A DNA stretch of 64,000 nt, taken from NCBI GenBank assembly GCA_963728405.1, contig CAVSJV010000017.1, forward strand, positions 32,001-96,000. The letters run 5' to 3'. The position numbers were made by a program, and so were the translations under genes. The DNA comes from Methanomassiliicoccaceae archaeon. GTDB taxonomy: Archaea; Thermoplasmatota; Thermoplasmata; Methanomassiliicoccales; Methanomassiliicoccaceae. Numbering within the stretch: the stretch's first letter is position 1; each line of letters begins with the position of its first letter. This document shows, one piece after another, positions 43,360 to 47,755 of this stretch. The notes below the pieces were generated by a model that was not told the origin of the DNA, did no database searches, and saw only the letters and a program-made list of their open reading frames with translations.

Positions 43360-44376
43360 TCACTTGTTGATGCCCAGGGTGCGGTCGGTCTTCTGGATGG
43401 ACCGCATGGCGTCCGGCTCTAGCTTCATCATCGCCCGTATGCAGTCGACGCTCTCGGGGACGACGTCGCTCTCCTGGTGGATACCCTGGTAATAGTACAG
43501 AGTATTGCCGATGACCTTGACCCCGTCCTGCCAGACCACGATCTCCATGAAGTCACCGCGCTCGCGCTTCAGGTCCTTGGCCAGTTCGAGGATCTGAGCG
43601 GTGGTCTTGACCCCGTGCTTGCCGCTGACGAACTTGACCCTCGGAACATTGTCCCAGACCGCCAGAACATCCTGGTCCTTGGCCTTCTTCCTCAGGTCGG
43701 CCACGATGCAGTGGACATGCATGAGGGTGGTCGGGGCCTTCACCGCCATGGTGGTGATGTTGAGCCAGGGCATGATGGTCTGGACGTCCGGTCCGTGGTG
43801 GGTCGGAAGCTTCAACGACGGCTCGAGCGCGTTGAGGGCCGAGCCCTTTAGGTCCGATGGGTCTGCGCCCCTCCTCACGATGGTGGCAGAGACCCTCTCC
43901 AGCCCGAAGACCTTGTCCAGAGGGTAGAGCGTTCTCACCAGTCCGGTGGTGTTGCATGAGACAACGCGGACGAACTGCGCCCCCCAGGCCTCGTTATAAT
44001 TGGCAAAAGCGTTGAACGATATGCCTGCTAGACCATGGTCCTCTCCTCCCTGGAAGATCGCCTTCACTCCGGCCTTCTCGTACAGAACCTTGTAATCCTC
44101 GGCCACCCCGCCGGGAGTGGCATCCACCATGATGTCGACATTCTTCAGCAGGTCGTCGATGGTGCCCTCGACCTTGATGCCGTCCTTCTCGAAGGCCGTC
44201 ACCTGTTCGGTGTTGGCCGTGTAAAGAGGAAAACCCTCCATCCCCGCCAACCTAGCCTCATAGGATGGTCTGGTCTTGGTGACCCCCACGATCTCCATGT
44301 CGTCCTGGGCCTTGATCGCGCAGGCGACCCTCTTGCCGATGGTACCGTAACCGTTGATGCCAACTCTGACCTTCAT
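43360..44376 (-). CDS. gap: Archaeal type II glyceraldehyde-3-phosphate dehydrogenase
   Basis: GYGTIGKRVA, IFQGGE, VVSCNTTGL, HHGPD, IHQES. Confidence 0.95.
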   Translation of the reverse strand: MKVRVGINGYGTIGKRVACAIKAQDDMEIVGVTKTRPSYEARLAGMEGFPLYTANTEQVTAFEKDGIKVEGTIDDLLKNVDIMVDATPGGVAEDYKVLYEKAGVKAIFQGGEDHGLAGISFNAFANYNEAWGAQFVRVVSCNTTGLVRTLYPLDKVFGLERVSATIVRRGADPSDLKGSALNALEPSLKLPTHHGPDVQTIMPWLNITTMAVKAPTTLMHVHCIVADLRKKAKDQDVLAVWDNVPRVKFVSGKHGVKTTAQILELAKDLKRERGDFMEIVVWQDGVKVIGNTLYYYQGIHQESDVVPESVDCIRAMMKLEPDAMRSIQKTDRTLGINK

Positions 44377-44569
44377 GCTGTGGTCTCCGTCGAACCTGTC
44401 AATGTCATTGATTCATTATGTGCCTTGTGGTTAGCTACCACAGGGTCACGTGGACGGGATGCCGAAGTGACATAAAGAGATGTAGGACGTTGTCCTCGGT
44501 TCCAGCATTATGAGCGGAAAGATATCACTGCCACATGATAACACGTGTAATGTCAGGACCTCGCAATAC

Positions 44570-44577
44570 TTTATATA
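44570..44577 (+). promoter_or_regulatory. TATA box of the ilv operon
   Basis: TTTATATA about 25 nt before the leader ORF ATG, implying a nearly leaderless transcript. Confidence 0.65.
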
Positions 44578-44601
44578 CATTCTCTATTATTTGGGAGACC
44601 A

Positions 44602-44673
44602 ATGCCTAGCGGTGCCACTAAAAGCTCCATCGTTTCTTCCGTTTTGAGCGTAGTGGTAGTATTGATTAGGTAG
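44602..44673 (+). CDS. Putative ilv operon leader peptide MPSGATKSSIVSSVLSVVVVLIR
   Basis: 23 codons; 10 of the last 14 residues are Ile/Val/Leu. Sits between the TATA box and ilvB and is followed by a hairpin. Confidence 0.7.
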   Translation: MPSGATKSSIVSSVLSVVVVLIR

Positions 44674-44699
44674 AGGCATCCAGCCGTTTGGGTGTCCTC
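44673..44699 (+). promoter_or_regulatory. Leader hairpin (putative attenuator switch)
   Basis: GAGGCATCCAG-CCGT-TTGGGTG(T)CCTC: 11 bp including two G-U pairs and one bulge, starting at the leader stop codon. Confidence 0.55.
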
Positions 44700-44721
44700 A
44701 CACATTGTAAAGGGTGATTAG

Positions 44722-46392
44722 TTGAGAGGTTCTAAAGCAGTTCTCACATTACTGGAAAATGAAGGGGTCGAGGTCATGTTCGGGTACCCGGGGGGTTCTA
44801 CCCTCACGCTGTACGATGATCTGCTGACCTCAGATATACGGCACGTGCTGGTCCGCCACGAACAGTGCGCGGCCCACATGGCCGATGGATATGCCCGAGC
44901 GACCGGCAAGATCGGGGTGTGCACCTCGACCTCCGGACCGGGCTCCACCAACCTGGTGACCGGGGTCGCCACCGCCTATGTCGATTCATCGCCCATGCTC
45001 GTCCTCACTGGACAGGTCACCACCAGCGCGATAGGCAACCAGGCTTTCCAGGAGGCTGACTCGTTCTCGCTGATGATGCCCATCACCAAGCATAACTTCC
45101 GTGTTCTTACTCCCGGCGAGATCCCAGAGGCCATCAAGAGGGGTGTGGCCATAGCCAACAGCGGACGGAAGGGGCCGGTCCACATCGACCTACCATCGGA
45201 CGTCCAGAAGGCCGAGGTCCCCGAGTCGGAGATGGTCAAGGAATTCCCGTCCCCACCATCCCTGGAGGACTTCTCCAATCTCCCCGAGGCCATCAAGGTG
45301 CTCAAGGGCGCTGAGAGGCCGCTGCTCCTGGTGGGCGGAGGGGTCATCTGGGCCAACGCCAGCCAGGAGGTTGTCAGACTGGCAGAGATGCTCATGGCGC
45401 CGGTCACCACGACCATCATGGCCAAGGGGGTCATCCCCGAGAACCATCCGCTCTCCCTGGGAATCATCGGCATGCATGGAAAGGAGTCGGCCCGCAAGGC
45501 GTTCCTGGAAGCGGACGTCATCCTAGCGGTCGGCACGCGCTTCTCCGACCGCAGTTCCGGCGCGCAATCCGAGCTGCCCATGTCCACGAAGATCATTCAC
45601 GTCGACATCGATCCCGGTGAAGCGGGCAAGTCCGCCCGCACCCAAGTGCGCATGGTCGGTGACGCCAAGAAGGCGCTACAGCTCATCATAGAGGGCCTTT
45701 ACGCTACCAAAGGCGAGACCGCCTGGTCCCTACGCATCAAGGAGATTCTGAAGAACTGCGACTGTGACATTGATATCTCTTCGTCGCCGGTCCTTCCGCA
45801 GTTCGCCATCTGCGAGCTGAACCGCTCCCTGCCGAAGGATGCTATCGTCTGCACCGAGGTCGGGCAGAATCAGATGTGGGCGGCCCACTTCTTCAAGGCC
45901 CGCTACCCGCGGCAGTTCATCACCTCCGGCGGGTTCGGCACGATGGGATTCGGATTCCCTGCATCGCTCGGGGCTAAGACCGCCTTCCCCAACAAGGCGG
46001 TCATCGATATCGCCGGCGACGGCAGCATCCAGATGGTCTCCCATGAGTTCGCCACGGCCGTCTCCGAGAACCTGCCGGTCGTGGTCTGCGTCTTCAACAA
46101 TGGATGGCTCGGGATGGTCAAGCAGTGGCAGAAGCTGTTCAACCAGTCCCGGTACAGCGGCACAGAACTGCGCAACAACCCAGACTTCGTCAAGCTCGCC
46201 CAAGCCTACGGCGCGGACGGGCTGCATGTCGAGCGCTCCTCGGAGCTGAGAGAAGCGCTACATACCGGCCTCAATGCAGGAGTGCCGTTCCTTTTAGATA
46301 TCCACATGGACCCCGAGGAGGACGTCCTCCCGATGATCCCCCCGGGCGCAAACCCCAACACAGTCATAAGAGGTAGGTGCACATGGAAGTGA
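44722..46392 (+). CDS. ilvB: Acetolactate synthase large subunit
   Basis: FGYPGG, RHEQ, TSGPG, FQE, GTMGFG, GDGS...NN ThDP motif. TTG start after GGGTGA. Confidence 0.95.
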   Translation: MRGSKAVLTLLENEGVEVMFGYPGGSTLTLYDDLLTSDIRHVLVRHEQCAAHMADGYARATGKIGVCTSTSGPGSTNLVTGVATAYVDSSPMLVLTGQVTTSAIGNQAFQEADSFSLMMPITKHNFRVLTPGEIPEAIKRGVAIANSGRKGPVHIDLPSDVQKAEVPESEMVKEFPSPPSLEDFSNLPEAIKVLKGAERPLLLVGGGVIWANASQEVVRLAEMLMAPVTTTIMAKGVIPENHPLSLGIIGMHGKESARKAFLEADVILAVGTRFSDRSSGAQSELPMSTKIIHVDIDPGEAGKSARTQVRMVGDAKKALQLIIEGLYATKGETAWSLRIKEILKNCDCDIDISSSPVLPQFAICELNRSLPKDAIVCTEVGQNQMWAAHFFKARYPRQFITSGGFGTMGFGFPASLGAKTAFPNKAVIDIAGDGSIQMVSHEFATAVSENLPVVVCVFNNGWLGMVKQWQKLFNQSRYSGTELRNNPDFVKLAQAYGADGLHVERSSELREALHTGLNAGVPFLLDIHMDPEEDVLPMIPPGANPNTVIRGRCTWK

Positions 46393-46751
46393 TAAAGATA
46401 GTCGGAAACGACTCACAGGGCCTGTTCCAGAGGGTCCTGGTGGAGCTCGGAAGAAGGAAGATAAACATTGAGAAGTCGTTCATGGCTCGGAACAAGGGTC
46501 TGATCACCATCATCGTGGAAGCGAACACCGGCAACATGAACGGACGACTACTGCACGCCCTCATGGCGCTACACGATGTGAACACGGCAGAATATCTCAC
46601 CGAGGACTACTTCTGCTTCTGGGAATCGTCCCCCAGCAAGGGCTCCGATTTCATCATCGCCTGTGGTGCCGATAAGGATGCTGGCGAGATGCGCCGGACG
46701 GCCGAACAATGCTTATACAGGGGCACAGATAACAGCGAGAAAAACTCGTAG
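46383..46751 (+). CDS. Divergent ACT-domain acetolactate synthase regulatory subunit
   Basis: Lies between ilvB and ilvC; ACT-like GLFQRVLVELGRRKINIE. Confidence 0.6.
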   Translation: MEVIKIVGNDSQGLFQRVLVELGRRKINIEKSFMARNKGLITIIVEANTGNMNGRLLHALMALHDVNTAEYLTEDYFCFWESSPSKGSDFIIACGADKDAGEMRRTAEQCLYRGTDNSEKNS

Positions 46752-46762
46752 GAGCCGGTAAC

Positions 46763-47755
46763 ATGGTTACTAAGATCTATCACGATTCCGACGCTGACTT
46801 GGACATATTGAAGGGCAAGAAGATCGCCGTCATCGGCTATGGGAACCAGGGCCGCGCCCAGGCGCTGTGCCTGCACGACTCCGGCCTCAACGTTACCGTA
46901 GGCGCTCGGAAAGGCGGGGAATCCTGGGACATGGCTCAGGCCGATGGCCTGAAGGTCGCCGAGATCCCCGAGGCGGTCAAGGGCGCGGACGTGGTCATGA
47001 TCCTGCTGCCGGACGAGGTCCAGCCCCGGGTGTACAAGGAGCAGATCGCTCCCCACCTGAAGGAAGGCGCTGCCCTGGAGTTCGCTCATGGGTTCGCTAT
47101 CACTTTCAAGCTCATCGCCCCGCCCAAGGACACCGACGTTATCATGGTCGCTCCCAAGTCCCCCGGCCGCATGGTTCGGCAGACCTATCTGGAAGGGTTC
47201 GGGGTGCCGTCGCTCATAGCCGTGGAAAAGGATGCGTCCGGCAAGGCCAAGAAGATCGCCCTGGCATTGGCCAAGGGACTGGGCTCTACCAAGGCCGGCG
47301 TGCTGGAGACCGACTTCCGTGAGGAGGCGACCTCCGATCTGTTCGGCGAGCAGGCCGTGCTGTGCGGCGGAGTGACCGCGCTGATCGAGGCCGGGTTCGA
47401 TACCCTGATTAAGGCAGGCTACAAGCCAGAGATCGCCTATTTCGAGGTACTGCACGAGCTGAAGCTCATCGTCGACCTCATCCAGGCCGGCGGCATGATG
47501 CACATGTGGGACTCCGTTTCCAACACCGCCGAGTACGGCGGGCTGACCCGCCGGGACATGGTCATCAACGAGGACTCCAAGAAGGCCATGAAGAAGATCC
47601 TCGACGATATCAACTCCGGCAAGTTCGCCGAGGAGTGGACCAAGGAGTGGACCGTCGACCTGGCCAACATGAAGAAGCTCGAGAAGGAGGAGTCGGAGAA
47701 GCAGGTCGAGAAGGTCGGCAAGGAGATCCGCTGCCTCTTCGAGCGCAAGTGCTAA
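46763..47755 (+). CDS. ilvC: Ketol-acid reductoisomerase
   Basis: GYGNQG, LLPDE, AHGF, APKSPG, DLFGEQ, SNTAEYG. Confidence 0.96.
   Translation: MVTKIYHDSDADLDILKGKKIAVIGYGNQGRAQALCLHDSGLNVTVGARKGGESWDMAQADGLKVAEIPEAVKGADVVMILLPDEVQPRVYKEQIAPHLKEGAALEFAHGFAITFKLIAPPKDTDVIMVAPKSPGRMVRQTYLEGFGVPSLIAVEKDASGKAKKIALALAKGLGSTKAGVLETDFREEATSDLFGEQAVLCGGVTALIEAGFDTLIKAGYKPEIAYFEVLHELKLIVDLIQAGGMMHMWDSVSNTAEYGGLTRRDMVINEDSKKAMKKILDDINSGKFAEEWTKEWTVDLANMKKLEKEESEKQVEKVGKEIRCLFERKC

Follow-up and report, generated by a model that had tools for sequence, protein, structure and literature searches.

Leader-peptide attenuation is the textbook consequence of the coupling of transcription and translation in bacteria. 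In enterobacteria, the attenuators ilvL (of ilvGMEDA), ivbL (of ilvBN), leuL and trpL are leaders that depend on a Shine-Dalgarno (SD) sequence and carry runs of cognate codons; they combine four RNA segments, mutually exclusive 1:2/3:4 and 2:3 pairings, and an intrinsic terminator with a U-tract, and in leuL rare codons sharpen the response. In tnaC-type control, a ribosome held at the end of the leader blocks the termination factor, and free tryptophan is sensed via the nascent peptide. Archaea also couple transcription and translation, and they do so with an RNA polymerase that resembles the eukaryotic one, promoters of the TATA/TBP kind, termination that needs no hairpin and mRNAs of which many are leaderless. 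The use of this coupling for regulation in Archaea is a standing question. Here we describe a short, valine-, isoleucine- and leucine-rich (V/I/L-rich) open reading frame (ORF) that probably serves as a ribosome-sensed leader of the branched-chain amino acid (BCAA) operon beginning with ilvB. It lies at positions 44602–44673 of a 64,000-nucleotide stretch of DNA from a Methanomassiliicoccaceae archaeon (GenBank assembly GCA_963728405.1, contig CAVSJV010000017.1, positions 32,001–96,000 of the forward strand), and we refer to this whole stretch as the window.

Several described systems invite comparison. For the ilvBNC leader of Corynebacterium glutamicum, mutations have demonstrated a hairpin terminator, an overlapping antiterminator and an anti-antiterminator (PMC11857589), and leaderless ilvBNC leader attenuators of Actinobacteria are treated in two further sources (PMC10272879, PMC1262725). 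In mycobacteria, leaderless polycysteine short ORFs (sORFs) form the first cistron of several operons and exert control on translation of the next gene and not on the termination of transcription; the codon tract helps to form a duplex by which the ribosome-binding site downstream is sequestered (10.1101/834739). For Archaea, a 2021 review on coupling relates that ribosomes and the termination factor aCPSF1 have been proposed to compete for nascent RNA and Spt4/5, and that archaeal termination needs no hairpin; the terms attenuation and leader peptide do not occur in it (PMC8116511). Our literature search found no amino-acid-sensing leader peptide for Archaea, within a scope that left out most subscription journals and supplements, and an earlier report is possible. 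An earlier sequence-only reading of this DNA had held that such leaders are not established in Archaea, and our search agrees with it.

The leader ORF, on the forward strand like the other features of the window described below, one upstream gene apart, consists of 23 codons and a TAG stop codon (44671–44673) and encodes MPSGATKSSIVSSVLSVVVVLIR, exactly as that reading had it. The TATA box of the leader/ilvB promoter, TTTATATA, occupies 44570–44577; its first base stands at −32 of the leader ATG, and 24 nt lie between box and ATG, close to the 25 or so first estimated. With a start about 24 nt past the TATA box, the mRNA would be leaderless or nearly so. As a crude test for leaderless genes, we counted TATA boxes at −29 to −32 of long-ORF starts in the same genome and found them only about twofold enriched, which neither strongly supports nor contradicts leaderless starts. 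A spacer of 48 nt, the distance originally given, separates the leader stop codon from ilvB, which begins with TTG at 44722. Ten of the last 14 residues of the leader are branched-chain (six Val, two Leu and two Ile), again as first counted, and they culminate in the codon run GTA GTG GTA GTA TTG ATT (VVVVLI; 44650–44667), which is rich in rare codons, conserved in its V/I/L class and the proposed site of stalling. The claim that the leader favours GTA, GTT, TTG and ATT, as against GTC, CTG and ATC in neighbouring genes, is borne out by codon shares in 1392 long ORFs of the genome: the former have shares of 0.11, 0.11, 0.10 and 0.10 and make up eight of the 10 BCAA codons of the leader, and the preferred codons have shares of 0.43 (GTC), 0.42 (CTG) and 0.74 (ATC).

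How unusual is such an ORF within its own genome? Given a background of V, I and L of 0.232 in long open frames, the probability of at least 10 such residues in 14 is 1.7e-4. Among 183 short ORFs positioned behind a TATA box, two contain a window of seven residues with six V/I/L, and only the leader has four Val; the same six of seven is found in 65 of the 5919 open frames that lie ahead of long ORFs. A single genome thus yields a significance of only about 1%, and conservation is the decisive evidence.

Orthologues of ilvB were found in all 41 genomes considered (the own genome and 40 relatives), and the 30 best loci, which belong to six families (f1–f6) and have ilvB genes 67–100% identical, were compared; named loci close to them belong to Methanomassiliicoccales. 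A V/I/L-rich upstream ORF (uORF) in this order had been set out as a check by the sequence-only reading, and it was present before ilvB in 30 of 30 loci. These counterparts have 21–26 codons, end 47–58 nt ahead of ilvB and start with ATG or GTG, commonly followed by TC. With a TATA box defined as a match of at least 7 of 8 positions to TTTAWATA, its first base falls at −30 to −32 of the uORF start in 26 of the 30 relatives; locus L015 has Ns there. On a uniform score, V, I or L fills at least four of the last eight codons in 30/30 loci and at least five in 25/30. The tails include VVVVLIR, SVVLTS/SVVLIS, AVVIIIS, VGIIIR and VIVVL/AVVIL, i.e. the class is kept and the residues differ, and the N-terminal two thirds of the leader vary freely even inside a genus.

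To these comparisons we can add a covariance model of the element, built from the 30 sequences and run on 151 genomes of the order. It recovers the element in 78 of them, once per genome except in one (G410), where it occurs twice, 2 kb apart, and its matches adjoin ilvB wherever coordinates were compared. By family, the element was found in 22/23 genomes of f1, 1/1 of f2, 42/47 of f3, 4/4 of f4, 0/1 of f5, 8/10 of f6 and 0/64 of f7, with incomplete genomes among the misses. In the own genome, no second copy was found at up to 7 mismatches to the 32-nt core, nor by hairpin pattern. Family f7 provides a natural control within the same order: its ilvB is 50–54% identical to that of the window, often comes as tandem paralogues and has a TATA box directly ahead of it. 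In the 20 upstream regions of f7 that were sampled, none reaches five V/I/L in the last eight codons and one reaches four. This sole exception, L142, is a genuine copy of the leader with its hairpin, ahead of a paralogue. Either the leader has been lost in f7 or its ilvB has been replaced. Separately, we observed in one genome (G012, contig C1, about 245535–246164) an element (covariance match 245535–245653) beside an apparent remnant of ilvB; this remnant looks internally deleted, matching residues 7–141 and 507–547 only, and a 45%-identical paralogue lies elsewhere in G012.

The alignment of the 30 sequences bears the marks of a translated frame. Gaps in the coding part are multiples of 3, and in the 36-nt tails, of which 27 are distinct, the other two frames hold stops in 24 and 25. 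T is concentrated at codon position 2 of the tails (frequency 0.64, versus 0.26 at position 1 and 0.33 at position 3), and V, I and L swap for each other between families. Codon choice in the tails is equally distinctive when compared with the ilvB coding sequences of the same loci: GTA accounts for 46 of 90 Val codons versus 0.06 in ilvB, ATT for 45 of 58 Ile codons versus 0.14, and TTG for 41 of 53 Leu codons versus 0.07.

Two RNA helices accompany this frame. The first, P1, emerged when every pair of alignment columns was scanned, and it joins codons 5–6 (ACCAC-like) to the Val codons (GUGGU); in the window, GCCAC at 44614–44618 pairs with GTGGT at 44653–44657, corresponding to alignment columns 13–17:61–65. 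In P1, 90% of the cells are paired and three of the five pairs change on both sides, with other complementary pairs in the diverged families; P1 was discovered and counted on one and the same alignment. The second, P2, is a hairpin predicted both from the single sequence and from the alignment, GAGGCATCCAG-CCGTT-TGGGTGTCCTC at 44673–44699, and it begins with the G of the stop codon. Nine pairs make up P2, with 92.6% of cells paired and compensatory change at five pairs; its foot, GAGG/CCUC, is nearly invariant. Jointly, P1 and P2 have 91.6% of cells paired, versus 35–50% when the partners are slid, and 8 of 14 pairs are compensatory, values reached by none of 500 shuffles. P2 is followed by a conserved (G)CUCAUUG motif, here ACACATTG at 44700–44707 (consensus GCTCATTG), in which alignment columns A103, T104 and T105 are invariant or nearly so. 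Further along the spacer, GGGTGAT at 44712–44718 is a candidate SD sequence of ilvB, and relatives carry a purine-rich GGTGAT, GGGGAT or GGAGG in the same place.

Another gene of the pathway has a leader of its own. The leuA gene of the own genome, a 2-isopropylmalate synthase (NF002085, 661 bits versus a cut-off of 517), lies outside the window (genome G000, contig C4; L151, 335–1963, minus strand) and is preceded by a 21-codon uORF (L151, 1969–2034, minus strand) that ends in ...IIAIKVALILREY, 38 nt ahead of the conserved leuA ATG. Among the loci of 41 relatives, each of the 30 best has a counterpart (that of L168 was read by eye), with a core of L-[ILF]-L-R and up to LLLLL. These leuA uORFs mostly stand behind a GAGGCCC SD-like box and are not leaderless. 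A Val/Ile/Leu leader on an operon for three amino acids and a Leu-centred leader on a leucine-specific gene are the pattern expected of sensors. Leaders at other operons of the genome, which the sequence-only reading had pointed to as a check, thus turned up for Leu and not for His, Trp or Thr: the 183 TATA-positioned short ORFs of the own genome held no convincing runs of His, Trp, Phe, Thr, Cys or other residues, and nothing obvious was seen upstream of its ilvD, trpE, hisG and three further HMGL-family genes. Three candidate ORFs for other amino acids were inspected and set aside, as they lie inside genes or lack a downstream gene. We also observed at leuA that in genus g1 a CATTGCT after the uORF stop is complementary to an AGCAATG at the uORF start, and that in genus g3 the complementary pair AAATGTG/CACATTT takes the place of CATTGCT/AGCAATG.

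Similar leaders stand before ilvB in other archaea. In a class-wide sample of Thermoplasmata, comprising 20 upstream regions outside the order, TATA-positioned, BCAA-rich uORFs precede ilvB in 6/6 loci of family f10, 2/2 of f30 and 3/3 of genus g91 of f24. Their best window of seven residues holds five or six V/I/L, and just 5 of the 8 leaders of f10 and f30 reach at least four in the last eight codons. In f10, the leaders close with a motif like ...PILVVLGVLVDLRILRP, and their stop codon lies inside a long hairpin. The named Thermoplasmata loci L032, L034 and L035–L038 agree with this sample, family f13 (three loci) shows weak evidence of a leader, and none was seen in three other genera of f24, in f31 (two loci) or in f19 (one locus, with an unclear hydrophobic ORF). 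Such ORFs also stood, unexpectedly, at two Archaeoglobus-type loci. In a sample of the class that contains Archaeoglobus, 59 of 61 genomes have ilvB; the 30 best ilvB loci of this sample (L182–L211) were scored. All 30 carry an ORF of 13–29 codons about 130 nt upstream of ilvB. A TATA box of the TTTAAA type lies about 22 nt ahead of the ORF start, with its first base at −27 to −30 in 24/30, and the ORF stops 16–40 nt ahead of the ilvB ATG. At least five of the last eight codons are V/I/L in 29/30, with runs such as VVVVC, IIVVH, VVVLF and VVVVLLL, and GTA supplies 95 of 108 Val codons versus 0.09 in ilvB. After the stop, a T run of at least 5 follows in 12/30. Elsewhere in Archaea, a quick scan that covered 79 of 80 loci (L056 is without upstream DNA) showed no such ORF at the remaining ones.

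Some side observations belong with this survey. The leaders at L111–L118, L123–L125 and L035–L038 (f10, f30 and g91) have 24–29 codons, with a BCAA cluster followed by DLRILRP, VLRIERP or IIIGL, and several of them terminate in Pro-stop. Three loci of low-GC f24 genera without the leader (L126, L127 and L128) share a motif AGGTT(T/A)ATCTAACATCT(G/A)(T/C)GGCG about 60–90 nt before ilvB, which may be a different regulatory site. In Bathyarchaeia (L060, L066, L078, L083, L085 and L092, with L075 diverged), a nucleotide-conserved, MRDRHLNSWNRRVLIL-like ORF of 16 codons stands about 105–160 nt before ilvB; it begins about 50 nt past a TATA box, is not leaderless and has BCAA as its last four residues only. 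This ORF could be a different leader or an RNA motif, and Rfam gave no match at L060, L066, L078, L083 and L085. In Methanosarcinia, Methanomicrobia and Methanocellales (L061–L063, L067, L068, L074, L076, L082, L096, L105 and L109), ilvB sits directly 3' of a leuA/cimA-like gene, and because it follows another gene, any leader would sit upstream of that gene. An 'MWMR' peptide before ilvB in Methanosarcinia and Methanomicrobia was rejected as an off-frame reading of the 3' end of the upstream leuA/cimA-like gene.

What we observe, then, is the anatomy of the element, its conservation, codon-level selection and the covariation of P1 and P2. On these sequence comparisons, we consider it likely that the ORF is a ribosome-sensed BCAA leader peptide gene, ilvL-like in function, of the operon ilvB-(ACT ORF)-ilvC. 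Other readings have to be weighed against it. The one that holds up best takes the element as a structured cis-regulatory RNA, or a binding site for a protein or tRNA, regulated by a ligand or factor and with the ORF as a by-product. Nucleotide conservation speaks for it: in 11 species with an identity of only 0.64 at ilvB third positions, 2 sites vary across the 36-nt leader tail, the tail together with the P2 5' arm is nearly invariant even at synonymous sites, P1 and P2 covary, and P2 is followed by a conserved motif. This near-constancy of the tail means that codon choice and RNA pairing are both constrained, and it could alternatively reflect an RNA or protein-binding element, a point that counts against a peptide leader. 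A by-product ORF, however, would not be expected to stay open in 30/30 relatives despite indels, all of them multiples of 3, to keep a fixed distance from the TATA box or to show T periodic at codon position 2. Nor does such an RNA fit with nucleotides that differ between families as the V/I/L class is kept, or with unrelated sequences of like composition and GTA preference in a different class. Rfam 15 gave no relevant match in 44300–44900 even at E<=10 and none at gathering score in nine related loci. We regard this reading as improbable.

Less probable still is a uORF that is translated and plays a constitutive, non-sensing role, i.e. termination-reinitiation onto the weak TTG or insulation of ilvB from the leaderless 5' end. 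The distances would suit it, as ilvB starts with TTG 48 nt past the uORF stop and, in the Archaeoglobus-containing class, the stop is 16–40 nt ahead of the ilvB ATG, a stop-to-start distance compatible with coupling. Such a role fails to explain why V, I and L should be enriched before ilvB in at least three separate lineages, why Leu should be enriched before leuA and why the rarest Val codon should be used. A functional small hydrophobic peptide, perhaps in the membrane and co-transcribed with ilvB by happenstance, is called to mind by some versions in the Archaeoglobus class (e.g. 26 residues, nearly all V/L/I) that resemble a transmembrane segment. We think this very improbable, given N-terminal two thirds that are unconserved within a genus, lengths down to 13 residues, conservation of the residue class alone, constant linkage to ilvB and a single copy. 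A chance ORF in an AT-rich, promoter-proximal region, for which one could cite the roughly 1% of comparable short frames in one genome that are equally V/I/L-rich (65/5919; 2/183), is refuted by its retention in 30/30 relatives and 78/151 genomes, by covariation and by codon selection, and deserves practically no credence.

If the ORF is a ribosome-sensed leader, how would it work? We infer that it is translated, that ribosomes stall on the codon run and that starvation switches ilvB on. Transcription would start about 24 nt past the TATA box, at or a few bases from the ATG, and a ribosome would load on the 5' end of the mRNA without an SD sequence and, towards the 3' end of the ORF, meet the rare codons for Val, Leu and Ile. 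Under a shortage of tRNA charged with any of the three, it would stall on this run, 6–21 nt ahead of the stop, opening P1, whose 3' strand is the Val codons, with P2 staying folded. When charged tRNA is plentiful, the ribosome would reach the UAG, and since P2 begins with the G of the UAG, each terminating ribosome would have to unwind the P2 5' arm. A ribosome footprint extends about 10 nt beyond the A site, so that a stalled ribosome would reach P2 from the last two codons and from no earlier ones; in other words, P2 would be folded in starved cells and repeatedly unwound in replete ones. The position of the ribosome would thereby set the conformation of the 48-nt spacer RNA and, through it, the expression of ilvB.

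Three outputs can be envisaged. Our first preference, held tentatively, is that folded P2 is permissive and that unwinding by terminating ribosomes refolds the spacer and lowers initiation at the weak TTG of ilvB. Second, and doubtful, the ribosome may control whether the transcript is ended early or cleaved within the spacer, through aCPSF1/FttA or at U-rich stretches, as an archaeal analogue of tna-type control. Third, and unlikely, stalled and queued ribosomes may cover the 5' end and stabilise the mRNA.

A number of results weigh against a leader of this kind, above all in its classical form. No leader turned up in f7 or in several further families of Thermoplasmata, so that the leader is dispensable. 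What is said here of a transcription start, of leader translation and of a short terminated transcript is predicted from sequence. The scan of column pairs gave P1, P2 and three weak candidates of 4–5 base pairs, and no 2:3 antiterminator helix; a terminator scan found no terminator-like hairpin with a T run on the plus strand. Between the stop and ilvB, the longest T run in the window is 3, and a T run of at least 5 occurs in the spacer of just 4 of the 30 relatives of the order. Tests of the first of the three outputs came out negative: a release of the P2 3' arm (CCUC, an anti-SD mimic) to sequester the SD sequence was considered and found no support, as accessibility proved flat and duplexes resembled those of shuffles. 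With ribosome positions modelled as unpaired stretches and thermodynamic parameters at 37 °C, without kinetics, the mean unpaired probability of the SD sequence over the 30 loci is 0.42 for free RNA, 0.41 with a terminating ribosome and 0.40–0.41 with a stalled one, and accessibility of the SD and start is equally flat in 30 loci of the Archaeoglobus class and 11 other Thermoplasmata loci. For pairing of the ilvB initiation region with the 3' arm of P2 and its flank, duplex energies have a mean z of −0.40, and 4/30 fall below −1.5.

Intrinsic termination finds no support in the window, given the T-run counts and the terminator scan. Partly suggestive of termination are genus g3 (L017–L019), in which a hairpin is followed by T5, and the 12/30 Archaeoglobus-class loci with a T run after the stop. 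The hairpin independence of archaeal termination, as put in the review cited above, means that a missing U-tract terminator does not exclude termination control (PMC8116511). We also tried to close the leader by pairing its 5' end (CAAUG/GUGUCAAUGA) with the CAUUG after P2. As a general feature this helix was rejected, with 5 loci below −1.5 and 4/30 unscorable; L021 (−13.2 kcal/mol, z −4.3) and L012 (z −3.0) show it strongly. The sequence-only reading had called the element an archaeal attenuator. The part of that proposal that finds strong comparative support is a BCAA-codon-rich sensing leader, with 30/30 relatives, a kept frame, rare codons, fixed TATA spacing and a stop abutting a covarying hairpin; the classical form lacks support, neither a terminator with a U-tract nor an antiterminator helix having been found.

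Downstream, the identity of the operon as one for biosynthetic acetolactate synthase is indicated by family membership of ilvB and ilvC. ilvB (44722–46392), the large subunit, matches TIGR00118 with 681 bits against a cut-off of 538 and also the Pfam families TPP_N/M/C, and ilvC (46763–47755), the ketol-acid reductoisomerase, matches KARI_N (2.6e-73) and KARI_C (1.6e-57). Between them, a 124-aa ORF at 46377–46751, which overlaps the end of ilvB by 16 nt, is possibly a short ACT-type regulatory subunit (ilvN-like). Its similarities to ACT_4 (E=0.033) and ACT_AHAS_ss (E=0.061) are both below cut-off, and Pfam gave no family at 1e-3; with only sub-threshold ACT similarity, the label ilvN is weak. 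If this ORF is a regulatory subunit, it would be a divergent one without the usual C-terminal domain. Of the ilvB-ilvN-ilvC operon first proposed, ilvB and ilvC are thus secure and the small subunit is weakly supported. The gene upstream of the leader, on the opposite strand, is GAPDH-like.

What might this element mean more broadly? We give even weight to the proposition, and to its contrary, that ribosome sensing via short, leaderless, cognate-codon-rich leader ORFs is a widespread and undescribed archaeal principle that works without a terminator/antiterminator switch. It would take in ilvB across six Methanomassiliicoccales families, no fewer than three other lineages of Thermoplasmata and the sampled Archaeoglobus class, as well as leuA in Methanomassiliicoccales. 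The sensing codons stand at the end of the ORF, against a stop and either a hairpin or a U-rich spacer, and this arrangement suggests another output, which, if the principle is true, could possibly be access of aCPSF1/FttA or refolding beside the start of the first structural gene. For the question of how Archaea use coupling in regulation, the element offers conserved and easily mutated test objects, both at the Methanomassiliicoccales locus of the window and in the Archaeoglobus-containing class, whose sample includes single-contig genomes. Additionally, many unannotated short ORFs at archaeal 5' ends are suggested as sensors, and the element marks a control point for the production of branched-chain amino acids in methanogens, organisms that are being engineered for valine (PMC13158618).

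In closing, we return to the known systems. Like the enterobacterial ilvL and leuL, the archaeal element has a cognate-codon run in a short uORF, rare codons, and separate leaders for ilv and leu; unlike the enterobacterial attenuators, exclusive pairings, an intrinsic terminator and a U-tract were not found at it. With tnaC it shares sensing codons that close the leader, right beside the stop, whereas the proposed cue is tRNA charging, and the likeness is purely one of analogy. Of the known systems, the leaderless ilvBNC leader of Corynebacterium stands nearest. The ilvBNC leaders of Corynebacterium and other Actinobacteria resemble the archaeal element in having a BCAA-codon-rich leader before ilvB, translated from the 5' end of the mRNA without a ribosome-binding site, as is predicted for the archaeal one, and the Corynebacterium leader also in its hairpins, one of which lies near the 5' end and involves the leader coding region. 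The archaeal element differs from Corynebacterium in that no terminator-like element or alternative 2:3 helix was found, in having its BCAA run in the last seven codons and its stop codon in the foot of a hairpin, and in its archaeal host, with a TATA/TBP promoter and a different termination machinery. Its Val codons pair with its own N-terminal codons (P1), and no consistent sequestration of the SD or start was found, unlike in the mycobacterial polycysteine system. The sensing half is thus like those of the Corynebacterium and mycobacterial systems and the output structures of both were not found, and for this reason we do not file the element in a classical family. In logic, the mycobacterial polycysteine sORFs may come closest: there, as proposed for the archaeal element, a leaderless sensory short ORF comes first, and several operons respond to one amino acid, and by analogy these sORFs are the best precedent for an output in which the spacer refolds to set initiation at ilvB.

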